NCBI GenBank assembly: GCA_016872355.1 | Contig: VGZY01000002.1 | Coordinates: 4,484 to 68,483, forward strand | Length of the DNA: 64,000 nucleotides | Origin: SAR202 cluster bacterium | Lineage (GTDB): Bacteria > Chloroflexota > Dehalococcoidia > Lucifugimonadales > VGZY01 | Reading direction: 5' to 3' | In this document: in pieces, positions 26,963 to 44,881 of the stretch | Numbering within the stretch: position 1 is the stretch's first letter | How the letters are laid out: each line of letters opens with the position of its first letter | The notes under the pieces: generated by a model | Told to the model about the DNA's origin: nothing | Seen by the model: the letters and a program-made list of their open reading frames with translations, nothing else | The model's database searches: none | Made by a program: the position numbers and the translations under genes

Positions 26963-26966
26963 GGTC

Positions 26967-28102: not shown

Positions 28103-30085
28103 ATGGTGGCCTCCTTTTCGTGGCCCCGCCCCGTCACGGTCCCGGGAATACAGTCGTTCAGGGCCACAGAGGTCACGCCGCCTCCCGCCTGGGCGCTGAT
28201 GGAGCGCAGGCTCTTCAAGCTTATTGAAGAGTCTTGCGAGCTTGCCGCATCCAGGTACTCTCGGCCGGACGGCAACTGCTACGCAATCCACGATGTAGAC
28301 GACACCTACGAGAGCCGCTCGATGCGTGGCCTTTTTTATGCCATGGGCGGAAGCGACCGGATGCTGGAGATCGCATACCGCTCCTGGGAGTCCACGACGG
28401 CGCTCTACAGCGACGGCGTGGCCCGCAGGCCGGACGATCCTGCCTTCACGAACCCTCGGTTCAGGCCGCAGCTTCATAACGAGTACTATACGGACGCAGG
28501 CCCCTACGACTGGTTTCACATGGGGGAAGGAAACCAGTCTTTCTACGACTTCGGCCTGGCCGACCCCACTAACCCGCAGATGCACGCCCGCGCGCGCCGT
28601 TTTGCCGGCCTCTACCTGGGTGAGGACGCATCCGCGCCGAACTGGGACCCCGTTCACAAGATAATCCGCTCCACGTTTCACGGCTCTCTCGGACCCAAGT
28701 TCAAGATGGAGCCGGATAGGACCAGGTTGTACCTGGACCCGGTCTATGGAAAACCCGAGCAGAACCGGGGATACGCCCAGCGCACGAACCTGCATCCCGT
28801 AATCAAAGACCTGGACAATAACTGGTTTGACGACCCTGCGCGCCGCGAGGAGGTCTGCCGTCTCTTTGACGAGATTATCCTGAACGGCGATGTCCCGGAC
28901 AACCTCATCTGCACCGCCCTCATCACGAACGCGTACCTGTACACCGGTGATGACAAGTACAAGAAGTGGGTCCTGGACTACACTGAGGTCTGGTTGGAGC
29001 GCGCAAGGGCAAACGGCGGGATTATCCCCGACAACGTGGGGCCGACCGGAAAGACGGGTTAGAACCGCGGCGGGCAGTTCTGGGGCGGGCTGTACGGCTG
29101 GAACAGCCGCTGGTCCGGAGACCACATCATGATGGGGGCTGTCATCGCCTCCACCTGCTCGCTGCTCCTAACCGGGGACTATGGCTACCTGGAGCTGATC
29201 CCCGGCCAGATAGAGGCCCTCGTCAAGATGGGCAAGGTGCGCGAGGACGGCCACCTGCTCATACCAACCCGAATCACCGAGAAGGGCTGGACTGAGTACA
29301 AGACCTTGTGGGTGCGCGAGCTGGCGCACCTGTACCACGCATCGATGGCGCCGGGCGACCGCGACCTTTTCAACCGCCTCTACAAGGGTGACAAGGAGAG
29401 CAACTGGCGAGAGATCAGGCCTGAGCCGGACCGCCGGAGCGGGAACTCCGAGCGGGCGCGCTTCCTGTACTACGAGGGAAAGAACGCGGACTGGTCTGTG
29501 ACCATCCTTTCCTCCGAGTACGAGCAGGTGCTCAAGCAATTCGAGCTTATGGTCAATGACCCGCGGTCTACGGCGGAGATAGCCAGGGACAGCCGGTGGC
29601 CGGCCAACCCGTGTGTGGTGAAGGGCCTGACGCAGGTCACGATGGGCGCTCCGCAGACGATCTACAACGGCGGGCTGAACCGGGCTACCGTACGCTACTT
29701 CGATGCAGACCGCGCCCGCCCCGGCCTGCCGCCGGACGTTGCCGCACTGGTGGACAGCCTCGGCCGGGACCACGTGGGCGTCCACCTGGCAAACACCAGC
29801 CGCACCGAGACTCACCGCCTGATCATCCAGGCGGGAGCGTTTCGCGAGCACGAATTCACCCAGGTGGGGGTTGGGGATCCTGGGCTGGGGGCTGGCTCTT
29901 CTCTCCCCCCTCGGGGGAGAGATACAGAGAGGGGGTCTTCGCCCCCCCTCCAAGTCAACAGCAAGCACTTCGAGGTTGTCCTGCCGCCTTCCGCGAGCAT
30001 TCGGATCAACGCCGGGCTGAAGCGCTTCTCCAACAAGCCCAGCTACGCGTTCCCCTGGCATGGGGACAAGGCGCCGGTGATTTAG
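28103..30085 (+). pseudogene. paralogue 1 of the unrecognised ~650-700 aa family, interrupted by one in-frame TAG
   Basis: Track ORFs 28103..29062 and 29129..30085 are in the same frame and contiguous. TAG at 29060-29062 sits where the four other paralogues have Glu, in the motif GPTGK[IV]GE[KN]RNGQWWGG. Confidence 0.8.
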
Positions 30086-30110
30086 ATACGGGATTACGGG
30101 ACAGAATGCA

Positions 30111-30142
30111 GTGTAGCTGCACAGCATGCTGTGCAGCTACAC
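30111..30142. terminator. perfect 32-nt palindrome between convergent genes
   Basis: GTGTAGCTGCACAGCA|TGCTGTGCAGCTACAC lies between the paralogue 1 stop (30085) and the corrected stop of the repeat protein (30174). Confidence 0.5.
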
Positions 30143-30173
30143 GGCCCGCACTCTTCCAGGCACCACGAGGCGG

Positions 30174-31650
30174 CTACGGCGCTCCGCCTGACGGCGTGTC
30201 CGTGAACCACAACGATTCAATGTAGAAAGGCGGCGGCACGTCCCGGCAGCCTCCTGCACAACCACTCGCGTGATAGTTGTGTTCGCGCCTCCGAGGTCGG
30301 CCAGCGGGATGCTTACCCAGTACCAGCCCTCCGGCCCGAGGTCAGCGTACTCGTTCATAGCGACGCGCCGTATTGTCCGCCCGTTCGCGTCCCGCATTGC
30401 CACGATCAGCTTCGGCAGCGGGCTGCCGTTGGGATTAATCACGAAGTCAAAGTGAGTATATGGCGTGGTGTTGAAGGTCGGCTTGCGAAGCTGCAGCCCC
30501 GCCCACCCCCTGTTAAACCTCACCTCCATCGACCTCCCGCCCGTGAGGACTGGCGACAGCGCCCTCGGGTCAACCTCCGCATCCCAGCTCCAGTTATCCC
30601 AATGAAGGTCCTCGTCGTAAACGAACCGATCGGTGGAAGGCCCCGGCGGCGCGCCTTCCAACCGCACGAAACGCAGGTCGTCGATATAGAAAGGCGACGG
30701 CGTTATGCCCGCCCCCTCCTGCACCACCACACCGGTGACTGTCCGGTCTCTCGCTCCGAGCTGTTCGAGCGGGATGGTGACCAGGTACCATCCGGCGCTC
30801 GTCGGCCGGGAAACCGCATATATGGATACACGATTGATCAGCCTGCCCGTGCTGTCTTTGAGGCCGATTCGCAAGTCAGGCAACGGGTCCCCATTCGGGC
30901 TGATAAAGAACTGCAGGTTCGAGTACGGCGTCGTGTCGAAGCTCGCCCTGTGAAGCTGCAGCCCGCCCCCAAGCCTGGTGAACATCACGCCAAGGGACTT
31001 CGTCCCCACGTAGACCGGAAACTGCGAGATGGGGTTCACGGTCGCGTCCCATCTCCAGTTGTCCCAGCGGAGCGACTCGTCGTACACGTCGTGCGCCCGC
31101 GACTGCGGATCGCTCGACCCGACGAAGCGCATGTCATCTACGAAGTAGGTTGGCTGCGCAGCCCCGGCGTTTTCCTGAATGGTCACCCGCGTGATGGTAG
31201 TGGCTACTGCGCCGAGCTCGTTCAGCGAAACTGCGACGGTGTACCAGCCGCCTGACGTTGGGTCCATGTAGATGCCGGCCGGATGCTCTTTATGATCCCC
31301 CCGCTGCTGTCGTGCAGCATGACGCGAAGATCCGGAAGCGGCCTACCTTTTGGATGGAGCGTGAACCGGAGGTGCGTGTACGGCCCGGCGTAGAACGGGG
31401 CCGGCGCATGGAACGATAGACCGGCCCAGGCCGCGTTGTGTGTCACGGCCATCGATCTGGAGCCTTCAAACACCGGCGATGTGCCGGCGGGGTCCACGGT
31501 CGTGTTCCAGCTCCAATTCTGCCAGTACGCCGCGTCATCGTAAACGACGCCCGAAGAGAAGTCCGCGCGCGCCGAATCGCCAATCGCCGCGGCCGCGAGC
31601 GCCGCCACTGCGAGCACTGCGGCGACCAGAGCCTTCGAAGTCCATCCCAT
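30174..31650 (-). pseudogene. secreted protein of three ~150-aa CBM-like beta-sandwich repeats, with two frameshifts
   Basis: Signal peptide MGWTSKALVAAVLAVAALAAAAIG. The repeats share VYDExLxWDNWSWD...TPY..L.F.I.P.G.PLP.L...L.D..G......GWY.V.IPL..LG....ItrVvvQE.AG...PFYIDD.RFV. One frameshift is near 31273-31282 (CCGGCCGG). A second near 30235-30245 restores ...QEAAG-VPPPFYIESLWFTDTPSGGAP* ending at 30174. The length of 1477 nt equals 493 codons minus 2 nt. Confidence 0.7.
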
Positions 31651-31787
31651 GCTCCACCGCCTTCCCTACCACCCTCATGGCCCTTATGCGCACATAATAG
31701 GCCCGCCGGCAACGGTCCACTTCGTACAAAGGCAGTATGGGCGCCAACTGCCGGACTAGTTTGAATCCAGCAAGAACTTTCGCCGGC

Positions 31788-31815
31788 TTGAAGAATTCAG
31801 GCCGTCGTGTATAAT
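31788..31815 (+). promoter_or_regulatory. sigma70-like promoter candidate for paralogue 2
   Basis: TTGAAG (31788-31793), 16-nt spacer, perfect TATAAT (31810-31815). Confidence 0.5.
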
Positions 31816-31872
31816 ACGGCCCTCCCGCCCACCCGGCGTCTGTCCGACAAGCACCTTTCATGGAGAAGATCA

Positions 31873-33873
31873 ATGGCAAGGGTTTCCATGCCCGGACTTC
31901 ACCGCGTAACCGCTACGGAGGTCGCGCCCCCGCCCACATGGGCCCTGATGCAGCGCCGCCTGTTCAAACTCGTCGAGGACGCAGGGATACTCGCATCCGA
32001 AAAGTACGCGCGCCCCGACGGCGGGTGCTACTCGGTCCACGACGTGGACGATACGTATGAGAGCCGTTCCATGCGCGGGATCTTCTACGCTATGGGCGGC
32101 GGCGACAAGATGCTGGAAATCGCCCACAAGTACTGGAACTCCTCCACCGCGTTCTACAACGACGCCACCGTCCGACGACCCAGCGACCCCACGCACCCCA
32201 TGTTCATGGTGCAGCTCCACAACGAATACTGGAACCACGCAGTCCCATTCAACGCGGACTGGTTCCACATGGGCGAGGGCAACCAGTCGTTCTACGACTT
32301 CGGCGTCGCCGATCCTACCAACCCGGACATGCGCCGGCGCGCGAACCGCTTCGCCGAGATGTACATCGGCGATGACCCTGAGGCGCCAAATTACGACAAG
32401 AAGCACAAGATCATCCGCTCTCCCCTGCACGGCTCCGAAGGGCCGCTCTTGCACGCGGACGTTAAGTACCGGCTCATTCACGAGGACGGCCACACCACCG
32501 GGGCGCTGGAGCTCGTGCGCCATTGGCTTGATTCGCGCTCGCTCGGCGATTTCGGCCACAGGCGCTCGCGCCTGGTGGACTACAAGCCCAGCGACAAGCC
32601 GCTGGTGACGCCGCTCCACCCCATCGTCAAGGAGCTCGAGCCGCTCTGGTTCGAGGACCCGGCGCGGCGCGACGAGATAATGAAGCTCTTCGACGACATC
32701 GTCCTCAACGGCGATGAGCCCAGCAACCTGTGCACAGTCGCGCTCGTTACCAACGCCTACCTGTACACCGGCGACGCTAAATACAAGAAGTGGGTGCTGG
32801 AGTACACCGGCGCGTGGCTGGACCGGATCAAGAAGAACAAGGGCATCATCCCGGATAACATCGGCCCCACGGGCAAGATCGGCGAGAAACGCAACGGCCA
32901 GTGGTGGGGCGGCCTCCACGGCTGGATGACCGCTGGCGCGTCCGACCGCATGTTCATCTCCATCACCATCGCGGCCGAGCTTGCCCACCTGCTGAGCGGC
33001 GACGCCGGCTACCTGGAGGTCCTGCGCTCACAGATCAAGGTGATGTTCGACAACCACAAGATTCGCGACGACGGACAGATTATCTTCCCCACGCAGCACA
33101 ACGAACAGGGCTGGGGCGGCTACGGCCCAATGCGCCCGCGCCGGGGCATCTTCCACCTCGCGCACCTCTACCACGCCTCGTTCGCGAAACAGGACTACGA
33201 CTACATCGTCCGACTGCGCGAGGGGGAGCGCGAGATCGACTGGAACGAGGCGCCGGTCATTGGCGACCGCGGCGGCGCGGGAAGCGAGTACAGCCGCTTC
33301 CAGTACTACGACGGCAAGAACCCCGACTGGCCGCTTAAGACCCTTACCGCGGACTACCAGGACGCGCTGGGACACTACGAGTTCATGATCAACGACCCTC
33401 GCGACACCGCGGCGATAGCCCGGGACGCGAAGTGGCCGCCGAACCCGGTGATTGTCAAGGCGCTCATCCAGACGACGATGGGCGGTCCGCAAACCATATA
33501 CAACGGCGGGCTGAACCGCGGCAACGTCCGCTACTTCGACGAGGACCGCGGCCGCCCCGGCCTCCCGCCGGATGTCGCCGCGCTGGTAGACAAGCTGGGC
33601 GACGCCAACATCGGCATCCAGCTCGTCAACACCAGCTCCACCCAGACGCGCAAACTGATCGTCCAGTCCGGCGTCTTCGGCGAGCACACGTTCACGGAGG
33701 TAAGGACCCAATCGGCGGGCAAGGAGCCGGCGATTGTGCCGGTAAACGGGAAATATTTCGCGGTGACACTCCCACCGTCCACGAGCATCCGCCTGGACGC
33801 CGGCCTGAAGCGGTTTTCAAACGACCCGAGCTATGCGTTCCCATGGCACAACGGCAAGGTGCCGGTGATATAG
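31873..33873 (+). CDS. paralogue 2 of the unrecognised family (666 aa)
   Basis: ATG 31873 is preceded by GGAGAA; the track start 31807 lies inside the promoter. It carries all family motifs (TATEVAPPPTWAL, DDTYESRSMRG, QLHNEYW, HKIIRSP, NAYLYTGDAKYKKWVLEY, GPTGKIGEKRNGQWWGG, RFQYYDGKNPDWP, YNGGLNRGNVRYFD, SYAFPWH). Confidence 0.8.
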   Translation: MARVSMPGLHRVTATEVAPPPTWALMQRRLFKLVEDAGILASEKYARPDGGCYSVHDVDDTYESRSMRGIFYAMGGGDKMLEIAHKYWNSSTAFYNDATVRRPSDPTHPMFMVQLHNEYWNHAVPFNADWFHMGEGNQSFYDFGVADPTNPDMRRRANRFAEMYIGDDPEAPNYDKKHKIIRSPLHGSEGPLLHADVKYRLIHEDGHTTGALELVRHWLDSRSLGDFGHRRSRLVDYKPSDKPLVTPLHPIVKELEPLWFEDPARRDEIMKLFDDIVLNGDEPSNLCTVALVTNAYLYTGDAKYKKWVLEYTGAWLDRIKKNKGIIPDNIGPTGKIGEKRNGQWWGGLHGWMTAGASDRMFISITIAAELAHLLSGDAGYLEVLRSQIKVMFDNHKIRDDGQIIFPTQHNEQGWGGYGPMRPRRGIFHLAHLYHASFAKQDYDYIVRLREGEREIDWNEAPVIGDRGGAGSEYSRFQYYDGKNPDWPLKTLTADYQDALGHYEFMINDPRDTAAIARDAKWPPNPVIVKALIQTTMGGPQTIYNGGLNRGNVRYFDEDRGRPGLPPDVAALVDKLGDANIGIQLVNTSSTQTRKLIVQSGVFGEHTFTEVRTQSAGKEPAIVPVNGKYFAVTLPPSTSIRLDAGLKRFSNDPSYAFPWHNGKVPVI

Positions 33874-33897
33874 GGGTACGGGGTATGGGGTATGGGG
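33873..33897 (+). repeat. (GGGGTAY)x4 run: canonical G-quadruplex motif starting in the stop codon of paralogue 2
   Basis: taGGGGTACGGGGTATGGGGTATGGGG has four G4 tracts with 3-nt loops. Confidence 0.7.
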
Positions 33898-34339: not shown

Positions 34340-36379
34340 ATGTCCGCAAGTGTTCCAGGGCTCGTGACTATCACCGCAACGGAGACAGCGTCGCCGCCGG
34401 CGTGGGCGTTGCTTGAGCGCAAACTAATTTCAACGATGGAGGACGCGGCGCGCCTAGCCCACAAGAAGTACTGCAATTCCGCAGGCCTCCCCTACTACGT
34501 ACTGGACACGGACGACGTCTACGAGAGCCGCTCCATGCGCGGCCTCCTGTACGCAATGGGTGGCGCGGACGACCTCCTGGACATCGCGCTCAAGGAGTGG
34601 AACGCCATCACGCGCTACTACGACGACGGGATCAAGCACCCGGACGACCAGCCCACCCACCCCATGTACATGGCGCAGCTCCACAACGAGTGGTGGAACC
34701 TCGCCATCCCGTACAACTCCGACGCGTTCCACGAGGGCGAGGGCAGCCAGTTCTTCTACGACTTCGCCATGGCGTCCCCCAACAACGCGGAGATGTACCG
34801 CCGCGCCAAACGCTTTGCCAACATGTACATTGGAGACGACCCCGAGGCGCAGAACTGGGGCCCGAAGCACAAGATCATCCGCTCGCCCATGCACGGCGGC
34901 AGTGGGCCGTTCCTCAAGAACAGCTTCACCACGCACAAACTCATCCACGTCGGCGGCCACACGACCGGAACGCTGGAGTTCGTCCGCGAGATGCTTGAGC
35001 GCGGCTCAATGGGCAACTTCTCCCACCGCACCGGCCTGGGCGACAAGCCCGGAAACAAGCCGCTGACGACGACGCTCTACCCCATCGTCAAGGACCTGGA
35101 CCCGCTGTGGTTCAAGGACGCCAAGCTGCGCGACACGATTCTCCAGCTATTCGACGACATTGCCCTCAATGGCGACGACCCCGCGAACCTGGGGTTGACG
35201 TCGCTCGTCACCAACGCGTACCTGTACACAGGCGAGGAGAAGTACCGAAAGTGGGTGTTGGAGTACGCGGACGTGTGGCTGGAGCGGCTGAAGAAGAACG
35301 GCGGCATCATGCCGGACAACACCGGCCCTACGGGCAAGATCGGCGAGAACCGTAACGGCCAGTGGTGGGGCGGCATCCACGGCTGGAACACCGGGGATAA
35401 GGGCGGCCTGGACAAAATCTTCATCTCCTGCGCCGTCGCCGCGGAAAACGCCGTGATGCTGAGCGGGGATGTGAAGTACCTGGACCTCCTGCGTCTACAG
35501 GTCAAGTACCTGCTGGACCGCGCCAAGACGGACGAGAACGGCCAGCTGCTCGTCGGCGCGCGCCACGGGCCGGACGGCTGGGGCGCCTGGCAGCCGATGC
35601 GGCTGCGCGAGCTGTCGTACATCTACCACGTCTCGATGAGCAAAGAGGACTACGACCTCATTTGCCGCCTCCGCGAGGGCACGCGCGATATGGACTGGAA
35701 CGCCGCGCCCGTGGAAGGCGACCGCCGCAGCGGCAACTCGGAGTTCCCGCGCTTCCAGTACTACGACGGCAAGAACCCGGACTGTCCGGAGAAGATCCTC
35801 GCAGCCGACTACCACGTGGCGTTCATGCAGTACGACGCAATGCAGCACGACACGCGCGACACCGCCCAGATCATCGAGGACAATAACTGGCCGCCCAACC
35901 CAGTCGTCGTGAAGGGGCTCATGGAGGTCACAATGGGCACGCCGCAGACGCTGTACAACGGCGGCCTGAACCGGGGCACCGTTCGCTACTTCGACACCGA
36001 CCGCAACCGCCCGGGCCTGCCGAGTGACGTGGCCGCGCTCGTGGACAAGCTCGGCCCGGACGTCGTCGGCATCCAGCTCGTCAACACCAACCCCACCGAG
36101 GCCCGCAGGCTTATCGTGCAGTCCGGCGTGTTCGGCGAGCACCAGTTCAAGAGCGTGAGCTACAACGCCGCCGAGGTCGCGTTCAAAGACAACAACCCCA
36201 AGCAGCGGGCCAGGGCCGAGCGGACGAAGGTTGAGCGCTCCCTGCCGCTCGACTCGAAGTACGCCGGCGTGGAGCTGCCGCCGGGGACGTCGATACGGCT
36301 GGACCTCGGGCTCAAGCGGTTCGCGAACAGGCCCAGCGCGGCGTTCCCCTGGCACGGCGGCACAGTGCCGCAGGAGTAG
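34340..36379 (+). CDS. paralogue 3 of the unrecognised family (679 aa)
   Basis: ATG 34340 is preceded by GGAGG. The track start 34193 would translate REP hairpins. All family motifs are present. Confidence 0.8.
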   Translation: MSASVPGLVTITATETASPPAWALLERKLISTMEDAARLAHKKYCNSAGLPYYVLDTDDVYESRSMRGLLYAMGGADDLLDIALKEWNAITRYYDDGIKHPDDQPTHPMYMAQLHNEWWNLAIPYNSDAFHEGEGSQFFYDFAMASPNNAEMYRRAKRFANMYIGDDPEAQNWGPKHKIIRSPMHGGSGPFLKNSFTTHKLIHVGGHTTGTLEFVREMLERGSMGNFSHRTGLGDKPGNKPLTTTLYPIVKDLDPLWFKDAKLRDTILQLFDDIALNGDDPANLGLTSLVTNAYLYTGEEKYRKWVLEYADVWLERLKKNGGIMPDNTGPTGKIGENRNGQWWGGIHGWNTGDKGGLDKIFISCAVAAENAVMLSGDVKYLDLLRLQVKYLLDRAKTDENGQLLVGARHGPDGWGAWQPMRLRELSYIYHVSMSKEDYDLICRLREGTRDMDWNAAPVEGDRRSGNSEFPRFQYYDGKNPDCPEKILAADYHVAFMQYDAMQHDTRDTAQIIEDNNWPPNPVVVKGLMEVTMGTPQTLYNGGLNRGTVRYFDTDRNRPGLPSDVAALVDKLGPDVVGIQLVNTNPTEARRLIVQSGVFGEHQFKSVSYNAAEVAFKDNNPKQRARAERTKVERSLPLDSKYAGVELPPGTSIRLDLGLKRFANRPSAAFPWHGGTVPQE

Positions 36380-36409
36380 GGTACGGGGTGAAGGATAAGG
36401 GGTAAGGGG
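36379..36409 (+). repeat. G-rich GGGGTA-type run at the stop codon of paralogue 3 (G-quadruplex candidate)
   Basis: taGGGTACGGGGTGAAGGATAAGGGGTAAGGGG has four G runs of at least 3. It begins with the same TAGGG(G)TACGGGGT as the sequence after paralogue 2. Confidence 0.55.
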
Positions 36410-36447
36410 TACAGGATATAACGAATCACAAAAAGAGGTCACAACAC

Positions 36448-38397
36448 ATGCTTAACATGCCCTGCCTGCCTTTCGTAACTGCCACTCGACTGGCGCCGCC
36501 GCCCGGATGGGCGCTGCTGCAGCGCAAGCTGATGGACGTGATGGAAGAGGGCGCGGAGTACATGATCGGCAAGCACGCAGAGAACGGCGGCGTTATCACC
36601 TACGCTGACGACATGGACGACCTCTACGAGCAGGTGAACAACTGGGGCCTCTTCTATGCCATGGGCGCGAGCAAGAAAATACTCACGATGGCCCTGGAAA
36701 GCTGGAACGCCACGACACGGTTCCACGATAGGAGCATCAAGAGCCGCGTTCACCCCCGTTTCCACGCTTCCAGCCACAAGGAGTACTACAGCATCAACCA
36801 CCCCGGCGACGCCGAGTGGCACCACAAGGGCGAAGGCAACATGGCCTTCTACGACTTCGGAGTCGCGGACCCCACGATCTCGGAGAACGTCCGGAGGGCG
36901 CGCAGGTTCGCAGGCTACTACATCGGTGAGGACCCCGAGGCGCCGAACTGGGACCCGAAGTACAGAATACTTCGGTCGCCCGCGCAGTCCGGCGAGGGGC
37001 CCTGGCACAAGACGACGACGGAGTACACGCACTCTTACCTCCTCGGCGGCAAAGGGCTGGACTCGATTTCGTGGTACGGCGTGCGCTCAAGCCTCCAACC
37101 GTTCGTGAAGGACCTTGAGCCCACCTGGTGGAAGGACCCAAAGAGGCGCGATGAGATCAACGCTCTCTTCGAGAAGCTGGTGCTGAACACAGACTCCTCC
37201 AACAACCTGGCAGCGACGGCGCTGGTCACAAACGCCTACCTGTACACAGGCGACGAGAAGTACCGACGGTGGGTGCTGGACTACGTGGAGGCGTGGATAG
37301 ACCGCACGAAGCAGAACGGCGGCATCTTGCCTGACAACGTCGGCCCTACCGGCAAGGTGGGAGAGAACCGCAACGGACAATGGTGGGGCGGCCTGTACGG
37401 CTGGAACCACTACCAGGGTTACAACATCATGTTCCACGGCCTGGTCACGGCCGTGGAGTGCGCACAGCTCCTCAGCGGGGACTCGCGCTACCTGGAGCTA
37501 CTGCGTTCGCAGATCCGGATGCTGCTCTCCAACGGCAAGCGCAAGGACAACGGCCAGCTGGTCGTGCCCAACCGCTACACCGCCGAGGGCTGGGCCGCGT
37601 TCATGCCGATGCGGATCTTCGAGATCGCCCACCTCTACCACGGCTCGCTATCCAAAGAAGACTATGACCTGTTCTGCGAGATACGAGCGGGAGACGTGGA
37701 GCGCAACTGGAACGTTGTGGAGCCGACGCACGAGAAGAACCAGCAGCTGCGGGACGGCCACCAGCATATGGCCCGCTTCCAGTACTACGACGGCAAGAAC
37801 CCGGGCTGGCCGGAGCAGATACTCTCTGCTGAGTTCGTGACTGCCTCCGATGCCATCCGGCGGATGAAGGCCTACCCGGACGACATGCTCAAGCTAATCG
37901 AGAACAACGACTCCCCGGACAATCCCGTCGTCACCAAGGGCCTCACGCAGACGATGCTCGGGGCGCCGCAGTCCAACTACAACGGCGGCCTCCTGCGCGC
38001 GACGGTGCGGTACTTCGACGCCGACCGCGCACGCCCGGGCCTTCCCCCGGATGTTGCGGCGTTCGTGGACGAGATCAAGGACGACCAGGCCGGCATCCGG
38101 CTCGTCAACATGAGCATGGAGCGGGCCGCGAACGTGATCGTTCAGGCCGGCGCGTTCGGGGAGCACACGTTCACGGAGGTGCGGTACGGCGAGGACGATC
38201 CTTCGACAATCGACAGGAAGAAGGGGATTGGCCCGTCCGTAATCGAGCGCACCCTGCCCGTTCACGGCAAGCACTTCGCAGTGAGTCTTCCGCCCGGAAA
38301 GGCCCTGCGAGTGCAGGCCGGCATGAAGCGATTCTCCAGCAAGCCGTCATACGGTTTCCCGTGGCACGGCGAGAAGATACCGGCGCCGTTTCAATAG
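36448..38397 (+). CDS. paralogue 4 of the unrecognised family (649 aa)
   Basis: ATG is preceded by AAGAGG and lies 68 nt after paralogue 3. All family motifs are present. Confidence 0.8.
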   Translation: MLNMPCLPFVTATRLAPPPGWALLQRKLMDVMEEGAEYMIGKHAENGGVITYADDMDDLYEQVNNWGLFYAMGASKKILTMALESWNATTRFHDRSIKSRVHPRFHASSHKEYYSINHPGDAEWHHKGEGNMAFYDFGVADPTISENVRRARRFAGYYIGEDPEAPNWDPKYRILRSPAQSGEGPWHKTTTEYTHSYLLGGKGLDSISWYGVRSSLQPFVKDLEPTWWKDPKRRDEINALFEKLVLNTDSSNNLAATALVTNAYLYTGDEKYRRWVLDYVEAWIDRTKQNGGILPDNVGPTGKVGENRNGQWWGGLYGWNHYQGYNIMFHGLVTAVECAQLLSGDSRYLELLRSQIRMLLSNGKRKDNGQLVVPNRYTAEGWAAFMPMRIFEIAHLYHGSLSKEDYDLFCEIRAGDVERNWNVVEPTHEKNQQLRDGHQHMARFQYYDGKNPGWPEQILSAEFVTASDAIRRMKAYPDDMLKLIENNDSPDNPVVTKGLTQTMLGAPQSNYNGGLLRATVRYFDADRARPGLPPDVAAFVDEIKDDQAGIRLVNMSMERAANVIVQAGAFGEHTFTEVRYGEDDPSTIDRKKGIGPSVIERTLPVHGKHFAVSLPPGKALRVQAGMKRFSSKPSYGFPWHGEKIPAPFQ

Positions 38398-38418
38398 CGG
38401 CAGTATGGTATACTTGCC

Positions 38419-38443
38419 AGGTAAGGAATAATTCTCCTTACCT
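38419..38443. promoter_or_regulatory. 9-bp inverted repeat upstream of the antitoxin gene (operator or terminator candidate)
   Basis: AGGTAAGGA-ataattc-TCCTTACCT ends 18 nt upstream of ATG 38462, in an AT-richer patch. Confidence 0.35.
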
Positions 38444-38461
38444 TCATGCAAGGAGGGATAC

Positions 38462-38692
38462 ATGGTGGTGGCAAAAGTGACCAGCAAAGGGCAAGTAACT
38501 ATACCCAAAGATGTTCGCGAACGGCTTGGAATCGAGCCGGGGGATGAGATCGAGTTCGTCGAGAGTGACGGCGAAATCAAGGTCGCTAAACATTTCACCG
38601 GATCCCCATTCGACAAGTTCGTGGGCTACTTGAAGCACCTCAAGGGGAGGACCACGGACGAGCTCATTGAGGAGATGCGTGGGGAGAGATGA
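38462..38692 (+). CDS. AbrB/SpoVT-MazE family antitoxin (VapB-like)
   Basis: KVTSKGQVTIPKDVRERLGIEPGDEI is a SpoVT-AbrB swapped-hairpin motif. ATGA overlap with the toxin gene. Confidence 0.8.
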   Translation: MVVAKVTSKGQVTIPKDVRERLGIEPGDEIEFVESDGEIKVAKHFTGSPFDKFVGYLKHLKGRTTDELIEEMRGER

Positions 38693-39177
38693 TAACGGCC
38701 CTGGATACGAATATCATCCTTGATATCGTAGTCCCCGACACGGCGGACGTCCGAACTTCAAAAGCCCTTCTGGAAAGGGCCGGTAGAGAGGGCGCCCTCG
38801 TGATCTGCGAGGTCGTATATGCGGAGGTGGCTGCCCGCTTTCAGGATGGTTCGGCGTTGGACTTTTTCATGCAAGAAACCCGGATTCGCCTGTCAGCCAG
38901 CACGCCAGAGGCATTGGCGGAAGCGGGAGTTGCCTGGACGAAGTTTGCGTCAAACCGGAGGCGCAAAGTGCAGTGCGGCTCTTGCGGACGAGAACAAGAC
39001 ATCGTCTGCATCGATTGCTCCCAAACAATCAGCTTCCGCCAACGAGTTCTCGCAGACTTTCTCATTGGTGGCCATGCGTTGCTACAGGCCGACCGCCTGT
39101 TAACTCGTGACCAGCGTTACTTTCGCACATACTTTGCAACACTCAAATTGGGGCCGGAGCTCGACCCCTCAAACTAG
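38689..39177 (+). CDS. PIN-domain toxin (VapC-like) with an inserted CxxC...CxxC segment
   Basis: ALDTNIILD (first acidic residue), EVVYAEV and LADFLIGGHALLQADRLLTRD are PIN motifs. The insert reads VQCGSCGREQDIVCIDCSQ. At 162 aa it is longer than the typical ~130-aa VapC. Confidence 0.75.
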   Translation: MITALDTNIILDIVVPDTADVRTSKALLERAGREGALVICEVVYAEVAARFQDGSALDFFMQETRIRLSASTPEALAEAGVAWTKFASNRRRKVQCGSCGREQDIVCIDCSQTISFRQRVLADFLIGGHALLQADRLLTRDQRYFRTYFATLKLGPELDPSN

Positions 39178-39208
39178 CGCCCAATGTTTGTATTGTGGGA
39201 GGTGACTT

Positions 39209-40261
39209 ATGTCCCGACCCTATGCCCTGCTTCGTGCGGGATTCCCGTACTACAAGACGATCGGAGCGCGCGGGAGGACAATCCTGCCTAACGACATGAC
39301 CATTGCGCCGGACGGCACCATCTACACGCTGTGCCAGGGCACCAACTACGGCAAGGGCAACCCCGGGCCGATCTACATCACTAACCTTGAAGACGAGTAC
39401 ATCGGCAGCATGGCGTGGCGGAACGCCCAGTACGGGCCGTATGGCCACTGCCAGTTCCACTGGCCCTGCCAGATCGTTATCGACGGCAAGAATCGGCTGT
39501 TTTGCTCGGACCAGGCCTTCGACTACCTGCAGGTCTTCAACAGGGACGCCGAGTATCTTGGCCGGTTTGGAGAGGCCGGGACCGGCCCCGGCCAGTTCAA
39601 CCGTCCATCGGGCCTTGCCGTGGACGCTCAGGATAACCTGTACGTCGTCGACTCTCTCAACCACCGCATCCAGAAGTTCGACAAGAATGGGCGTTTTGTT
39701 TCAATGTTCGGCTCGCTCGGCTCGGAGCCAGGCCAGTTCAACATGCCGTGGGGCACCCACGTGGACAGCGAGCACGACGAGATCTACGTGGCAGACTGGC
39801 GCAACGACCGCGTTCAGGTCTTCGATATGAACTGGGAGTTCCAGTTCCAGTTCGGAGAGTCCGGCAGCGGAAAGGGGCAGCTCAACAGGCCAATGGGCAT
39901 AGCCGTGGACAAAGATGGCGACATCTACGTGTGTGACTGGGGCAACAACAGGGTGCAGCTATTCGACAAGACGGGACGCTATATCCAGCAGTTCCTCGGA
40001 GACGCCACGCTCTCCAGGCAGGAGATCGAGGTCTACCTGAGGCGGCACTCGGCCAAGCAGAACCGGTTGAGGATTGAGGCTGACAACGAGCAGGAGAAGC
40101 TCTTCGCCGGCCCGCGCTCCGTGCGGGTGGACTCCGAGGGCCACATGTTTGTGGTGGAGGCCGACCACTACCGCATCCAGGTGTACAAGAAGCAGGCCAT
40201 TGTTCTCACGGAAATGGACGTGGCCCCGCCCCTCAAAGTCCCCACGATGAACCAGAACTAG
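39209..40261 (+). CDS. NHL-repeat beta-propeller protein, no signal peptide
   Basis: Repeated units of the type NRPSGLAVDAQDNLYVVDSLNHRIQKFDKNGRF, FNMPWGTHVD..IYVADWRNDRVQVFD and LNRPMGIAVDKDGDIYVCDWGNNRVQLFD. Confidence 0.85.
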   Translation: MSRPYALLRAGFPYYKTIGARGRTILPNDMTIAPDGTIYTLCQGTNYGKGNPGPIYITNLEDEYIGSMAWRNAQYGPYGHCQFHWPCQIVIDGKNRLFCSDQAFDYLQVFNRDAEYLGRFGEAGTGPGQFNRPSGLAVDAQDNLYVVDSLNHRIQKFDKNGRFVSMFGSLGSEPGQFNMPWGTHVDSEHDEIYVADWRNDRVQVFDMNWEFQFQFGESGSGKGQLNRPMGIAVDKDGDIYVCDWGNNRVQLFDKTGRYIQQFLGDATLSRQEIEVYLRRHSAKQNRLRIEADNEQEKLFAGPRSVRVDSEGHMFVVEADHYRIQVYKKQAIVLTEMDVAPPLKVPTMNQN

Positions 40262-40292
40262 AGACGACTCGGAACGGCAGGAGAGTTGGACC

Positions 40293-41705
40293 ATGCCCAT
40301 GAAAAAGCTCACAGACTCCCAGATGAGGGACTTCGTGCGGAATGGCTTTGTAAGGGTGCAGACGGCCCTGCCGCCCGAGTTCCACCGGGAGATCTTCAGG
40401 GCATCGGAAGAGCTGAACAAAGAGGGCAACCCGGGGAACAACCTGCTGGCCAAAGTGCCGGCCATGCAAAAAATCTACGACGATCCCGGCGTCGCGGGGG
40501 CGCTCGCCAGCATCCTGGGCGACGACTACTTCATGCAGCCTCACCGCCACATGCACTTCAACCCTCCAGGCAGCCCCGGCCAGACAATGCACAAGGACTC
40601 GTTCACCCGCCGCAGACACCACACTCGCTGGATGGTCACTTTCTACTTCCCCCAGGACACGACGGTTGAGATGGGGCCGACGGGCGTAGTGCCCGGCAGC
40701 CACTACTTCAACAAGTACAACCCGGAGACGGACACGCCCGAAAGCTTCATGGCCGGCCCAGCAGGCAGCGTTGTGATCGCGAACTACGATGTGTGGCACC
40801 GCGCGACGCCTAACCGTAGCCAGAAGAACCGGTATATGCACAAGTACCTCTTCACCCGCATGTCGGAGCCCACCGCTCCGAGCTGGCGGAGCACGGGCGA
40901 TGCCTGGGTTGCAAAGAAGGGCGACCAGCACACCGCCATGTGGTCGCACATGTGGGACTGGCACTACGGCAAGCTGTCAAAGGGCAGGGCCGGCACCCTT
41001 GAGATGAGCGAAAAGGAGATCAGGCAGAAGGTGGCGGCGCTTTCAAACGACTCTGAGCGCGTCGCATTCGACGCCGCGTACACGCTGGCGAAGGTGGGCG
41101 AAAAAGCCGCCCGCCCGCTGGTGAAGCTACTGAGCGACGGGTCCGCCGAAAAGTGGTACACCGAGCTGACCCGCAGGCCGCCCGGGCAGACATCGCCGTC
41201 CGCGAACGCAAGCTATGCCCTGATGGCGATGGGCGCCCCTGCCGTCCCTTTGCTGGTCGACCTCGCCTCCAGCCGCAATATGTGGAACCGAGCGAGCGCG
41301 GTCGTTACACTGATGGACATCGGGCCGGCCGCGAAGGCCTCAGTCCCGGCCATTGCTGCGGCGCTCAAAGACGATTCTCCGCTTGTGCGCCAGTTCGCAG
41401 CGGAGGCTATGGGCACGGTAAGCCAGGGGACGTCGAAAGGCGTTGCGGCCCTCGTCCCTGCCCTCAAGGACCAGGATGAGACCGTGCGCAGGTTCGCAGC
41501 GCTCTCACTGGCGAAGATCGGCCCCCATGCAAAAGGGGCCACGAAGGCGCTAATTTCGTCCCTGGGCGACAGCAATCGTTATGTCGTCGGCAACGCCCTC
41601 CACGCCCTGCACCGGATCGATACGGCCGAATCGCGCGAGGCGGTGCTCGCCCACCTGTTCACTGCGCGCTGGGACCGCCTGACGACGAAGACATCGCTAT
41701 ACTAG
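40293..41705 (+). CDS. phytanoyl-CoA dioxygenase (PhyH) family Fe(II)/2OG oxygenase fused to C-terminal HEAT repeats
   Basis: N-terminal ~220 aa carry the MHKDS (HxD) and WHRATPN motifs. The C-terminal ~230 aa carry PBS-lyase/HEAT-like repeats (LKDDSPLVRQFAAEAMG, LKDQDETVRRFAALSLAKIG, LGDSNRYVVGNALHALHRI). Confidence 0.75.
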   Translation: MPMKKLTDSQMRDFVRNGFVRVQTALPPEFHREIFRASEELNKEGNPGNNLLAKVPAMQKIYDDPGVAGALASILGDDYFMQPHRHMHFNPPGSPGQTMHKDSFTRRRHHTRWMVTFYFPQDTTVEMGPTGVVPGSHYFNKYNPETDTPESFMAGPAGSVVIANYDVWHRATPNRSQKNRYMHKYLFTRMSEPTAPSWRSTGDAWVAKKGDQHTAMWSHMWDWHYGKLSKGRAGTLEMSEKEIRQKVAALSNDSERVAFDAAYTLAKVGEKAARPLVKLLSDGSAEKWYTELTRRPPGQTSPSANASYALMAMGAPAVPLLVDLASSRNMWNRASAVVTLMDIGPAAKASVPAIAAALKDDSPLVRQFAAEAMGTVSQGTSKGVAALVPALKDQDETVRRFAALSLAKIGPHAKGATKALISSLGDSNRYVVGNALHALHRIDTAESREAVLAHLFTARWDRLTTKTSLY

Positions 41706-41734
41706 ACGGACTAAATCTAATTCAGGACTCACTC

Positions 41735-42568
41735 ATGCCACACGTTTACGGAAGCTCGGCGACGGCGCAGTCAAAGTACACCGCCAAGCGCGCGGCAGGG
41801 CCGATCAAGATCGACGGCAAGCTGGACGAGCCCTCGTGGAAGCTGGCGCAGAAGTCGACACGCTTCGTGGACCTCGTCACCGGCCAGCCTGTGGAGCACG
41901 ACACCCGCGCTGCCGTCCTGTGGGACGACGACTACCTGTACGTGGGCTTCTGGGTGGAGGAGCCGGACGTTCGCGGCACGCTGACGGAGCGCGATTCGTT
42001 CATCTGGAACGACAACGACGTCGAGGTCTTCATCGACGGCGGAGACACGTACTACGAGTTCGAGATGAACTCGCTCGGGACCGTCCTGGAGATCTTCTGG
42101 ATCTGGAAGGATGTGTACAAGCGCGGCGGTAAGTTCGATATCCCCGAGTTCGACCTCTTCGGCGGCAACGTCTGGGTCCTGAACGGGCTGGACGGCCGCA
42201 AGCACCCGCGCGGCGCGCGCTGGGGCTTCCTGGACTGGGACATGAAGGGGCTCAAGACGGCGATTCACATCGACGGCACGCTGAACAAGCGCGACGACAC
42301 GGATAAAGGCTGGACGGCGGAGATCGCGTTCCCCTGGAAAAGCATGAAGTGGCTGGCGAACGGCCGCTCACTGCCGCCCAAAGAGGGCGACGTGTGGCGT
42401 ATCGACTTCTCCCGCTTTCAGCAGTACGACAAGGAGACGAAGCCGCTCCCGAGCTGGGTGGTCAAGGACAGCCCCGGCTGGGTGTGGAACATGCACGGCC
42501 TCTACGACTCCCACATCCCGGAGTGCTTCGTGCAGGTGAGCTTCAGCGAGAAGTCCGTGGGGAAATAA
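41735..42568 (+). CDS. CBM9/DOMON-like carbohydrate-binding-fold protein, no signal peptide
   Basis: IKIDGKLDEPSWKLA...AVLWDDDYLYVGFWVEEPD...NDNDVEVFIDG...YYEFEMN is the CBM family 9-like pattern. Confidence 0.6.
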   Translation: MPHVYGSSATAQSKYTAKRAAGPIKIDGKLDEPSWKLAQKSTRFVDLVTGQPVEHDTRAAVLWDDDYLYVGFWVEEPDVRGTLTERDSFIWNDNDVEVFIDGGDTYYEFEMNSLGTVLEIFWIWKDVYKRGGKFDIPEFDLFGGNVWVLNGLDGRKHPRGARWGFLDWDMKGLKTAIHIDGTLNKRDDTDKGWTAEIAFPWKSMKWLANGRSLPPKEGDVWRIDFSRFQQYDKETKPLPSWVVKDSPGWVWNMHGLYDSHIPECFVQVSFSEKSVGK

Positions 42569-42578
42569 CCGGTCCCCT

Positions 42579-42661
42579 GTAGCCCGCGCGATTCATCGCG
42601 CCCGTCGTGCTCGCCAGGGTCGCCCGTTGGCGACCCGTGCGCGATGAATCGCGCGGGCTAC
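42579..42661. mobile_element. 83-nt MITE/REP-like element, copy A
   Basis: Perfect 23-nt terminal inverted repeats GTAGCCCGCGCGATTCATCGCGC (42579-42601) and GCGCGATGAATCGCGCGGGCTAC (42639-42661). They surround a 37-nt core with its own hairpin GGGTCGCC-cgtt-GGCGACCC. Confidence 0.7.
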
Positions 42662-42784
42662 AAGATGACCGCCGCACCTCCATTCAACTATGCCTACCCT
42701 CCTTTGACAACCTTCGTTATCCCCTGATACCCTGCCACCGCAACGACGGCCCGCTCGAAATATTCACCACCGTGGAGGCATCCC

Positions 42785-44881
42785 TTGCCCGCCAACAAGC
42801 CCATCTCCATCCCCGGCATAGCAACCATTACCGCCAGCCGGATCACTCCTCCGCCCGCGTGGGCCGTATTGGAGCGGCAGCTCATAACGACGATGGAAAA
42901 GGGCGTGGAGGTCTTTAACGAGAAGTACACGACGCCCGACGGTAACATGCACTTCATCTACGACGTGGATGACGTGTTCGAGAGCCGCGTCAACCGCGGC
43001 CTCCTCTACTCGGTGGGCGGAAGCAGCAAGTTCAAGGACCTGGCGATCCGCGAGTGGAACGCGACGGCCCGCTTTTACAGCGAAGAGTTCAAGCCCTCGC
43101 CTGTGGAGCAGCACCCTCACCTGTCCGCAAAGCCGGACATCCTCTCCCAGGGGGAGAGGAGTAATCGGTGGAAGCCGGGTTCTATCCATCCCATGTATAT
43201 GGCCCAGCTCCACAACGAGTTCTGGACGCTCGCGATCCCATTCAACGCGGACTGGTTCCACATCGGCGAAGGGCTGCAGTCGTTCCACGAGCTGCCGCTG
43301 GTCGACCCGACCATTGAAGAGAACATCCGGCGCGCCAGGCGGTATGCCTCGTTCTACAACGGCGAGGACCCGAGCGCGCCGAACTACGACCCGAAGCACA
43401 AGATCATCCGCTCCCCCTTCGGAGGCAGCAAGGGGCCAATGCTCCGGGCCATCGACGCTCCGCCGATGGTGCACGAGGGCGGCTACGTCTCGAACGCGAT
43501 GGACCTGGCGCGGTACTTCCTCGACCCCGCGTCGTACGGCGACTTCGGCCACCGTCGCGGCGTCGCCAGCAAGCCGAGCGCAGGGAAGCTGATGACTCCG
43601 CTGTACCCCATCGTCAAAGAGCTTGAGCCCAACTGGTTCGAAGACCCGAAACGCCGGGACGAAATCCTGCGACTGTTCGAAGACATTGTCCTCAACGGCG
43701 ACGAGCCGACGAACCTCCCCTGCACGGGCCTGATGGCAATGGCGTACATGTACACAGGCGAGGACAAGTACCGCCAGTGGGTTGAGGACTACGTAGGCGC
43801 GTGGATTGACCGCACGAAGAAGAACGGCGGAATTATGCCGGACAACATTGGCCCCACCGGCAAAATAGGCGAAAAGCGCAACGGCCAGTGGTGGGGAGGC
43901 ATGCACGGCTGGAACCGCCGCGGCGGTTGCGACCGCATGTTCACGGCGATCGCGATCGGCGTGGAGGCAGCGACGCTCGTCAGCGGGGATACAGGCTACC
44001 TGGACCTGCTCAGGTCGCAGCTGCGCCTGCTGCTGGACAACTCCATCAAGCGCGAAGACGGCCAGCTACTGCTGCCGAACAGGTACGGCCCCGAAGGGTG
44101 GGCGGAGCATCGCCCATGGACGATCAAGGAGTTCGTGCACCTCTTCAACGCATCGCAAAAGCCCGAGGACTACCAGATGATAGCGATGCTGCGGGAAGGC
44201 AACCGCACAGCTGACTGGAACGACGTGCCGTCCGGGCCGGACCCCAAGGGCGGTCGCACGGACACGGGCCGTTTCCAGTATTACGACGGCAAGCTGGCGG
44301 ACTGGCCGGAGCGGCTCGTGGAGGCGGAGATACAGTTCTCCCAGACGGTCACGAGCAGCTTCGTCAACGACCACCGCTCGCTTGAGCAGATACTGGAAGA
44401 CAACATCTGGCCGGCGAACCCGCTCGTGATGAAGGGGCTGACGCACCTGGTCACAGGCGGCCCGCAGCACCTGTACAACGGCGGCCTTCAGACCGGCAGC
44501 ATACGCATCTTCGACCCCGATCGCGCGCGGCCCGGCATGCCGGAGGACGTGGGCGTACTGGTGGACGAGATAAAGGCCGACCGCACGGGTGTGCAGCTCG
44601 TCAACCTGGACCCAGTAGAGTCCCGCCGCGTCATTGTGCAGGGTGGCACGTACGGGGAGCACCAGTTTACTGACGTAAGCTACACAGAGACGGACCGCAA
44701 CTGGACCGGGACGAATCCGGGGACGTGGATTCGGGCAAAGGCCACCAGCACGGACCGCTCCGTGCCCGTTAACAATAGCTATTTCGAGGTAGTCCTGCCG
44801 CCCGCGACCGGAATTCGCGTGAGCGCCGGCATGAAGCGGTACGCTAACAAGCCGTCGTACGCGTTCCCGTGGACTAGGTAG
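42785..44881 (+). CDS. paralogue 5 of the unrecognised family (698 aa)
   Basis: TTG start is preceded by GGAGG at 7-nt spacing. All family motifs are present (GPTGKIGEKRNGQWWGG, SYAFPW). It has an extra insert after the first third. Confidence 0.75.
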   Translation: MPANKPISIPGIATITASRITPPPAWAVLERQLITTMEKGVEVFNEKYTTPDGNMHFIYDVDDVFESRVNRGLLYSVGGSSKFKDLAIREWNATARFYSEEFKPSPVEQHPHLSAKPDILSQGERSNRWKPGSIHPMYMAQLHNEFWTLAIPFNADWFHIGEGLQSFHELPLVDPTIEENIRRARRYASFYNGEDPSAPNYDPKHKIIRSPFGGSKGPMLRAIDAPPMVHEGGYVSNAMDLARYFLDPASYGDFGHRRGVASKPSAGKLMTPLYPIVKELEPNWFEDPKRRDEILRLFEDIVLNGDEPTNLPCTGLMAMAYMYTGEDKYRQWVEDYVGAWIDRTKKNGGIMPDNIGPTGKIGEKRNGQWWGGMHGWNRRGGCDRMFTAIAIGVEAATLVSGDTGYLDLLRSQLRLLLDNSIKREDGQLLLPNRYGPEGWAEHRPWTIKEFVHLFNASQKPEDYQMIAMLREGNRTADWNDVPSGPDPKGGRTDTGRFQYYDGKLADWPERLVEAEIQFSQTVTSSFVNDHRSLEQILEDNIWPANPLVMKGLTHLVTGGPQHLYNGGLQTGSIRIFDPDRARPGMPEDVGVLVDEIKADRTGVQLVNLDPVESRRVIVQGGTYGEHQFTDVSYTETDRNWTGTNPGTWIRAKATSTDRSVPVNNSYFEVVLPPATGIRVSAGMKRYANKPSYAFPWTR

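Follow-up and report, generated by a model that had tools for sequence, protein, structure and literature searches.

The five genes of the array

We describe a stretch of 64,000 nucleotides (nt) from a SAR202 cluster bacterium (Chloroflexota; Dehalococcoidia; contig VGZY01000002.1), which we will call the window. It contains an array of five related genes of the Pfam family PF26099 (DUF8034), a probable new family of carbohydrate-active enzymes with an (alpha/alpha)6 barrel; it is already catalogued and has no characterised member. The genes are numbered as copies 1 to 5 in their order along the window:

28103..30085, + strand: copy 1, DUF8034 paralogue disrupted by an in-frame TAG
31873..33873, + strand: copy 2, DUF8034 paralogue of 666 amino acids (aa), identified as MBM3932839.1 / FJ319_00795 of a SAR202 metagenome-assembled genome (MAG); the copy which was modelled
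34340..36379, + strand: copy 3, DUF8034 paralogue of 679 aa, identified as FJ319_00800
36448..38397, + strand: copy 4, DUF8034 paralogue of 649 aa, of a subfamily common to Poribacteria
42785..44881, + strand: copy 5, DUF8034 paralogue of 698 aa with a TTG start, identified as FJ319_00835 (690 aa in the NCBI call)

These five copies on the + strand had been listed in an earlier note, made from the sequence alone. A tblastn search of the whole window with copy 2 finds them and no others. They are collinear from end to end and have a pairwise identity of 44–60% over about 630–670 aligned residues, in agreement with the previous estimate by eye that about half of the positions are identical. Each copy has its own ribosome-binding site, as the note had claimed: purine-rich motifs of the Shine-Dalgarno type (GGAGG, GAGGT, GGAGA) are found 5–12 nt 5' of each start. 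The reported absence of a signal peptide also holds, since by inspection the N-termini have no hydrophobic leader. Copies 2, 3 and 5 are identical to proteins of the SAR202 cluster MAG, all of them named hypothetical. Copy 5 is the most divergent paralogue and has an insertion of 22 aa.

The motif blocks which the earlier note presented as invariant are real and strongly conserved, but strict invariance among the five copies is not found. Copy 1 has GKTG*NRGGQFWGG and RFLYYEGK; copy 3 has SPP instead of PPP, and SAAFPW; copy 4 has DMDDLYEQVNNWG, SSHKEYY and YRILRSP; copy 5 has WAV, MAYMYTG and IRIFD.

The disruption of copy 1 is due, without any frameshift, to one in-frame TAG in positions 29063-29065, where GAG is expected. 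This codon corresponds to the Glu of the GPTGK-x-GE motif, which is Glu in all other copies and in 40 of 40 homologues. Among 188 family positions conserved in at least 90% of the sequences, copy 1 deviates at 22, including R385P and R449Y. At the same positions copies 2–4 have 6–13 deviations and the intact copy 5 has 28. Copy 1 lies between them, so that a long-term decay is not supported by these counts. The TAG is probably either a recent nonsense change, as in a recent pseudogene or a strain variant, or a sequencing error, rather than the mark of an old wreck.

The family and its distribution

The earlier note considered the family to be unrecognised. It is indeed devoid of any characterised member, but it is present in Pfam as PF26099, a domain of unknown function: a catalogue entry for the family itself. 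The assignment is a precomputed one of the database, given for copies 2, 3 and 5 (P0001, P0012 and P0063) and for all the 120+120 homologues listed; the Pfam-A set which we scanned has no PF26099 model. Copies 1 and 4 were placed in the family by their 46–60% identity to the other copies. In the library of papers searched, no functional study was met for PF26099, DUF8034 or the locus tags of Haloferax volcanii.

The family is large, it can be present in several copies per locus and it is found both in Bacteria and in Archaea. With E≤0.001 a profile search gives 2,040 clusters at 50% identity, and 416 of these have E≤1e-30. There are at least 550 DUF8034 loci in species-representative genomes (550 of the 600 candidate matches listed were confirmed). 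The 80 closest loci are nearly all in MAGs of Dehalococcoidia/SAR202, Poribacteria, Latescibacterota and Gemmatimonadaceae. Thus the family is expanded in abundant uncultured lineages, marine and associated with sponges (SAR202, Poribacteria, Latescibacterota). More distant full-length members, with 30–34% identity, are found in the megaplasmids of cultured haloarchaea, including pHV3 of H. volcanii, and in Streptomyces, Nonomuraea, Kribbella and Paenibacillus.

Judging from their sequences, DUF8034 proteins are mostly leaderless and would be cytoplasmic, while some of the distant ones appear to be secreted. Accessory domains are present in three of the 46 diverse members which we scanned: a domain similar to FGE-sulfatase, MORN repeats and a tail of the type IX secretion system (T9SS). 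Four distant members may be mentioned: P0198 has a signal peptide and the FGE-sulfatase-like domain, P0129 a signal peptide and the T9SS sorting tail, P0131 a signal peptide and an N-terminal extension, and P0142 has MORN repeats at its C-terminus.

Age of the copies and arrays in other genomes

The five copies had been described as old duplicates, and comparison with other genomes leads to the same view. For four of them the best match is not a neighbour in the window but a gene of another genome, often from a different phylum. Copy 4 is 61–63% identical to the second gene of the tandem arrays of Poribacteria, as compared with 46–50% to its neighbours in the window. The best relative of copy 3 is a Latescibacterota gene with 63% identity, and copy 1 is 56–57% identical to Poribacteria genes. 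The copies therefore represent distinct old subfamilies and are not the result of local amplification. Lateral transfer has probably spread these subfamilies. In three Dehalococcoidia loci (L084, L002 and L005) single DUF8034 genes are flanked by genes for DDE transposases (DDE_Tnp_1_4), which is consistent with mobility of DUF8034 genes.

Arrays of this kind are found elsewhere. Among 81 loci, each defined as the 20 kb around a DUF8034 gene, 20 have 2–4 copies, mostly in tandem on one strand. Neither these arrays nor their neighbours have the aspect of scattered single genes in unrelated surroundings, since consistent sugar-catabolic neighbours are found across bacterial phyla and haloarchaea, as we will see below.

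Search for a characterised relative

No characterised family was found by sequence, in agreement with the failure of the earlier note to recognise one. Scans of Pfam-A and NCBIfam gave none for the paralogues or for the 46 diverse members, even at E≤10. Sequence searches of the PDB at E≤10 gave no match with two profiles and one chance match with a single sequence. Glyco_hydro_127 (DUF1680) has no match in the four intact paralogues at E≤1, nor in the 46 diverse members at E≤10. Glyco_hydro_88 gives a match below threshold in only one of these 46 members, with E 0.092 and 12.1 bits, the cut-off being 26.6. Neither the profile searches nor the structure searches which follow yielded a confident match to a characterised family.

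Predicted fold and conserved residues

AlphaFold2 models were obtained for copy 2 (pLDDT 92.1, pTM 0.93) and for a Haloferax homologue with about 33% identity to copy 2 (pLDDT 88.2, pTM 0.92). Both have about 12–18 helices up to approximately residue 535, followed by a C-terminal domain with 8 strands. Each protein is thus predicted to be formed by an (alpha/alpha)6 barrel of about 540 residues and a beta-sandwich of about 110 residues. An (alpha/alpha)6 toroid with a beta-sandwich had been guessed in the earlier note, and at the level of the fold the two models and the Foldseek searches bear this out. The chemistry of a glycoside hydrolase (GH) or a polysaccharide lyase (PL), which the guess also implied, we only infer.

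When compared with the PDB by Foldseek, the top 50 matches of both models are nearly all (alpha/alpha)6-barrel carbohydrate enzymes. They include YihS, mannose isomerase, N-acylglucosamine 2-epimerase (AGE), cellobiose 2-epimerase, GH127/GH146, GH88, GH76, GH47 and the DUF255 protein 7tkv.

Similar in architecture are the beta-L-arabinofuranosidases of families GH127 and GH146 (clan GH-P, formerly DUF1680), such as HypBA1 of Bifidobacterium longum. They have a similar size, about 650 aa, and the same domain order as the one predicted for DUF8034, a barrel and then a beta-sandwich. Those to HypBA1, Ara127N, BT3674 and GH146 are the only PDB matches which span the full length including the beta-domain, over about 720–740 columns with E 2e-4 to 7e-3. 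However the template modelling (TM) score is only about 0.3 and the identity 9–13%. HypBA1 acts on oligosaccharides, and GH127 catalysis is defined in this enzyme by a Cys nucleophile and a Cys3-Glu zinc site. In DUF8034 no Cys is found among the invariant or at least 90% conserved columns of A3 and A4, our broad alignments; conservation of C370 is limited to a close subset (A2). Since no Cys is conserved across the family, the Cys/Zn apparatus has no counterpart in it and a GH127-type chemistry was rejected.

The unsaturated glucuronyl and rhamnogalacturonyl hydrolases (GH88/GH105) also have the (alpha/alpha)6 barrel, and structures of the glucuronyl enzymes appear among the Foldseek matches of copy 2. 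They act on unsaturated oligouronides generated by lyases. Unlike DUF8034 they have a single domain, with about 370 aa.

As far as the barrel is concerned, the best superpositions are with the AGE superfamily (YihS sulfoquinovose isomerase, mannose isomerase, cellobiose 2-epimerase and N-acylglucosamine 2-epimerase) and with DUF255 (7tkv). In both searches they have a Foldseek probability of 1.00 and a TM score to the target of 0.44–0.50. Members of this superfamily are cytoplasmic, act on sugars and have a catalytic His pair in the pocket of the barrel. DUF8034 might be an enzyme similar to AGE and YihS, a sugar isomerase or epimerase (aldose-ketose, or C2/C5 epimerisation), acting on mono- or disaccharides or on uronates without cleaving any bond; it could be, for example, an analogue of uronate isomerase which feeds the UxaA-type dehydratases of a Haloferax locus. 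That locus does have UxaA-family genes and no annotated UxaC, and an invariant His and Glu (H132 and E135) would be at hand. On the other side DUF8034 proteins exceed the AGE enzymes by about 250 residues, contain large insertions and have an extra beta-sandwich with conserved polar residues of its own. Comparison of the family profile (A3) with Escherichia coli YihS by hhalign is negative, with a probability of 1.3%, and the GlcNAc_2-epim model of Pfam has no match in the paralogues or in the 46 diverse members. The secretion of some members and the T9SS tail would also be difficult to understand in a monosaccharide isomerase. We consider it unlikely that DUF8034 is an isomerase of this kind.

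The invariant or nearly invariant polar residues are, in copy 2 numbering, D59, D60, E63, H132, E135, R318, D328, N329, D556, E604 and H605. They are maintained in bacterial and archaeal members with an overall identity of about 30%, and some of them are in the beta-domain. Such conservation argues for an enzyme.

The copies of the window have a D-[VTM]-D-D-[TVL] sequence, which we take to resemble the DxDDTA motif of squalene-hopene cyclases. It raises a different possibility, a small-molecule enzyme unrelated to carbohydrates: a cyclase or hydratase dependent on protonation, which would use this motif as class II terpene cyclases do, or an enzyme which takes part with PhyH dioxygenases in the oxidation of recalcitrant dissolved organic matter. 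Terpene cyclases and LanC-type enzymes are also (alpha/alpha)6 barrels, SAR202 is noted for its expanded families of oxidative enzymes, and the closest partner of the array is a dioxygenase. However the first Asp of DxDD is not among the invariant or at least 90% conserved columns of A3 and A4; only DD-x-YE is conserved. No SQHop_cyclase or prenyltransferase Pfam match was found in the 46 diverse members at E≤10, and no cyclase is present in the top 50 Foldseek matches. For these reasons a class II terpene cyclase was rejected as the main explanation. The neighbourhoods in cultured organisms are, furthermore, overwhelmingly related to sugars, and a function outside carbohydrate chemistry appears very improbable to us.

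Gene neighbourhoods

The open reading frames (ORFs) of 77 MAG loci were clustered and their representatives were scanned against Pfam. Recurrence was measured within 10 kb:

PhyH dioxygenases: 36 of 77 loci; adjacent (less than 1 kb) in 20 loci, across four phyla
Gfo/Idh/MocA oxidoreductases: 28 of 77 loci
enolase-superfamily MR_MLE proteins: 28 of 77 loci; also found in haloarchaeal loci
aldo-keto reductases: 17 of 77 loci

The distances of PhyH genes to DUF8034 have a sharp peak at 0–1 kb, which contains 21 of the 61 genes. Other recurrent neighbours in the MAG loci are HpcH aldolases, short-chain dehydrogenases and amidohydrolases. Sets of this kind resemble the non-phosphorylative oxidative pathways for uronates and deoxyhexoses. 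We also observed a cluster (c10) of 534-aa proteins with no Pfam match, which has 11 members in 10 loci of Latescibacterota, Gemmatimonadota and Chloroflexota (for example L056:19055-20659, - strand).

In cultured organisms the genes around DUF8034, as they are annotated, are plainly those of glycan catabolism. The Streptomyces locus has a fucosidase, ABC transporters for sugars and rhamnose, a beta-helix protein, an acetylxylan esterase, Amidohydro_2 and an aldo-keto reductase. In Paenibacillus there is an operon with an aldo-keto reductase, RraA, DUF8034 and a RhaM-like protein, accompanied by AraC regulators and sugar-binding proteins. Kribbella has a GH63-like protein, a sugar ABC transporter and a protein with the pectate lyase fold.

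Haloferax and Haladaptatus share a DHDPS-DUF8034 gene pair which has MR_MLE and Gfo/Idh/MocA genes alongside. A Latescibacterota genome also has these four families, arranged in another order. The H. volcanii homologue is HVO_RS01685, with the protein accession WP_004041192.1, in locus L086 (pHV3 387852-419774); its old tag should be HVO_B0349, inferred by counting from HVO_B0342 and HVO_B0357. The cluster in this locus comprises three Gfo/Idh/MocA genes, two MR_MLE, one of the DHDPS family, two ThuA, a GH4 (lplD), UxaA fragments, a CBM9-like protein and an MFS transporter. In the transcriptome table of a DNA-repair study on Cas1/Fen1, HVO_B0342 and HVO_B0343 are up-regulated (PMC9051519).

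Eight haloarchaeal loci were read. Five of them have a PelZ-like lyase with a Tat signal within 10 kb (NCBIfam E 7e-70), and in three of the five it adjoins DUF8034 or lies within about 2 kb of it. Other neighbours in haloarchaea are a PelW-like lyase (E 3e-60), GH28, GH78, GH4, GH3, an arabinofuranosidase, ABC transporters and IclR/TrmB regulators. In the stretches read of the lyase-containing loci no GH88/GH105 or oligogalacturonide lyase gene is annotated. It would be attractive to give DUF8034 an equivalent role in them. The PelZ-like proteins of four megaplasmids (L087, L090, L092 and L093) are orthologous; they have about 700 aa, with an N-terminal DUF1349 domain (concanavalin-like) and a beta-helix. 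They were rejected as partners in the marine MAG loci, where they have no homologues.

The same loci may suggest that DUF8034 is itself a lyase. It would be an exo-acting oligosaccharide lyase with an (alpha/alpha) toroid and a beta-sandwich, like those of PL8, PL12, PL15, PL17 and PL21, which degrades uronate oligomers by beta-elimination and is equivalent to oligogalacturonide lyase in the loci with PelZ- and PelW-like proteins. The predicted architecture agrees, the neighbourhoods are related to uronates or pectate, and the family has conserved Tyr, His, Arg and Asn residues which could be used. Pfam also gives matches to Alginate_lyase (E 0.13) and C5-epim_C, but they are isolated, each in a single member, and below threshold (E 0.05–0.13). 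No PL structure is present in the top 50 Foldseek matches of either model, and many of the MAG loci have no other sign of uronate polymers. A lyase is quite unlikely in our opinion.

Possible function

We return to hydrolysis. On balance, and by a modest margin of confidence, we favour the view that DUF8034 proteins are glycan-processing enzymes, probably hydrolases. The five genes of the window would be old members of a single enzyme family which have diverged in function, each with a different substrate specificity. Most DUF8034 proteins would act in the cytoplasm as exo-glycosidases on imported oligosaccharides which contain uronic acids, deoxyhexoses or both. A candidate reaction is the removal of a terminal uronyl residue, possibly unsaturated, or of a rhamnosyl or fucosyl residue. 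In the classical pathways for pectin and rhamnogalacturonan this is the job of GH88/GH105, oligogalacturonide lyase (Ogl) or GH78. The secreted, T9SS and FGE-fused variants of the family fit an action on polymers or oligomers better than on central metabolites.

Once set free, the sugar would be channelled into a non-phosphorylative oxidative route, for which the recurrent neighbours have the genes. This route may consist of a dehydrogenase (Gfo/Idh/MocA or aldo-keto reductase), a lactonase, a dehydratase or cycloisomerase of the enolase superfamily and an aldolase or dehydratase of the DHDPS or HpcH type. The adjacent PhyH dioxygenases might remove modifications of the sugars, such as O-methyl groups. 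PhyH-family enzymes, one of them from Poribacteria, demethylate 2'-O-methyl ribose (PMC12709175), which makes sugar O-demethylation by the neighbours plausible.

Several points weigh against this proposal. Neither sequences nor profiles connect DUF8034 with any GH or PL family, and the likeness found by Foldseek is at the level of the fold only, with E from 1.8e-4 to about 1e-2, TM 0.3–0.5 and 8–16% identity. The (alpha/alpha)6 fold also houses sugar isomerases and epimerases, lyases and enzymes which do not act on carbohydrates. Every homologue listed is named hypothetical or uncharacterized and none has an assayed activity. In the window there is no recognised carbohydrate-active enzyme, transporter or sugar regulator beside the array. 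The counts of neighbours are not independent, since the MAG loci were taken as the 80 best matches of a single paralogue, with many closely related Poribacteria genomes among them. In Poribacteria no other Pfam domain comes close to PhyH in abundance (PMC3909097), so that part of the association of PhyH with DUF8034 may be background. Finally, haloarchaea with PL genes have no growth or marginal growth on pectin, polygalacturonate and rhamnogalacturonan (PMC9726719, PMC12343721), which makes the true substrate of the lyase loci uncertain.

A more ambitious proposal can be made only tentatively, and we have more doubt than confidence in it. DUF8034 may be a new family at the level of the CAZy classification with a catalytic machinery of its own, which has no Cys nucleophile and uses the set DD-x-YE / H-x-GEG / PDN-GxxG-x-GE. 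It would be paired with diversified PhyH proteins in a system of two enzymes, which strip and cleave modified acidic or deoxy sugars (O-methylated, for example) from marine and sponge glycans and from dissolved organic matter. If this were true, the expansion of the family in SAR202, Poribacteria, Latescibacterota and Gemmatimonadota would correspond to a hidden capacity for glycan degradation, which annotation underestimates.

The glycan-processing role by itself would already have consequences. A study of sponge Chloroflexi found that extensive uptake and degradation of carbohydrates seemed to be missing in SAR202 (PMC6306507). If DUF8034 processes glycans, the inferences on carbon cycling made for SAR202, Poribacteria and Latescibacterota miss a whole class of enzymes, and the expansion of PhyH in Poribacteria, noted long ago and unexplained (PMC3909097), gains a functional partner. 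The matter is directly testable, since there are homologues in culturable organisms: H. volcanii (pHV3), which is also a genetic model, Streptomyces and Paenibacillus, including P. montanisoli.

Other genes in the window

The remaining genes in the region of the array are the following:

20823..22667, + strand: GlmS, left boundary of a syntenic block
23461-24642: Ser/Thr protein kinase, between GlmS and the array
24537-25964: membrane-anchored protein, Hvo_1808 family surface protein (NCBIfam, E 5.7e-28)
26063-26962, - strand: LiaF-like membrane protein
30137..31650, - strand: secreted repeat protein with a signal peptide and at least three beta-rich repeats of about 130 aa, in two overlapping ORFs
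38462..39177, + strand: VapBC pair, a 76-aa AbrB/SpoVT-like antitoxin ORF (MVVAKVTSKGQVTIPKDVRERLG...) which overlaps by 4 nt a 162-aa PIN-domain protein
39209..40261, + strand: NHL protein, a leaderless six-bladed beta-propeller (Pfam NHL, E 1.2e-32)
40293..41705, + strand: PhyH-HEAT, a leaderless Fe(II)/2-oxoglutarate dioxygenase fused to HEAT repeats (Pfam PhyH, E 2.9e-13; HEAT_2, E 5.7e-21)
41735..42568, + strand: CBM9-like protein, a leaderless DOMON-like beta-sandwich directly upstream of copy 5 (Pfam CBM9_1, E 2.4e-10)
44953..45726, + strand: Nudix hydrolase, right boundary of the syntenic block
46563..47792, - strand: MR_MLE, an enolase-superfamily protein, putative sugar-acid dehydratase or cycloisomerase (Pfam MR_MLE_C, E 1.2e-21)
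48621..50336, - strand: conserved protein of 571 aa with no family assignment

The array had been described as interleaved with proteins of carbohydrate-binding fold and propellers. Pfam agrees, since it identifies the CBM9-like protein (41735-42568) and the NHL beta-propeller (39209-40261). That list of neighbours had overlooked the PhyH-HEAT fusion (40293-41705) and the VapBC pair (38462-39177).

The PhyH-HEAT gene is the best conserved partner of the array in Dehalococcoidia. A syntenic block found in four other genomes of this class has GlmS, PhyH-HEAT, two DUF8034 genes, a chromate-transporter-like gene, a third DUF8034, PhyH and Nudix. Homologues of PhyH-HEAT are located directly upstream of DUF8034 tandems in L007, L008, L016 and L047. 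Compared with this block, the arrangement in the window is expanded and reordered, and the VapBC pair and two damaged genes have been inserted in it. The pair is placed between copy 4 and the NHL gene and by itself looks like an insertion. The genes for the kinase, the Hvo_1808-like and the LiaF-like proteins (23461-27000) are unrelated to the block of the other Dehalococcoidia.

The PIN, NHL, PhyH-HEAT and CBM9-like genes follow one another as in an operon, with gaps of 29–31 nt. Homologues of the NHL protein, with 44–46% identity, are found in four other DUF8034 loci of Chloroflexota. CBM9-like proteins are found near DUF8034 only in the window, in L084, in L069 and in H. volcanii pHV3, with a likeness restricted to the domain level. 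Their association is sporadic, so that the CBM9-like protein is not a core partner, and an obligate one was rejected.

The two damaged genes lie within 28–31.7 kb: they are copy 1 and the gene for the repeat protein at 30137..31650, which is the neighbour that the earlier note described as having a carbohydrate-binding fold. Its repeats follow the pattern VYDE-L-WDNWSWDA...GWY-V-IPL-LG...IDD-RFV, common to both ORFs. The split over two overlapping ORFs and a garbled C-terminus, apparently out of frame, indicate that the gene has at least two frameshifts. It is not conserved in other DUF8034 loci, and its sole family match in Pfam is a weak one to SGBP_B_XBD (E 0.0019).

The 571-aa protein recurs near DUF8034 in six other loci, including L059, L007, L006, L075 and L054. 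It is 51% identical to the Latescibacterota protein of L059. One of its relatives has a weak match to GHL10, a TIM barrel similar to glycosyl hydrolases (E 0.0013); it may represent a second uncharacterised family related to carbohydrates in the DUF8034 loci.

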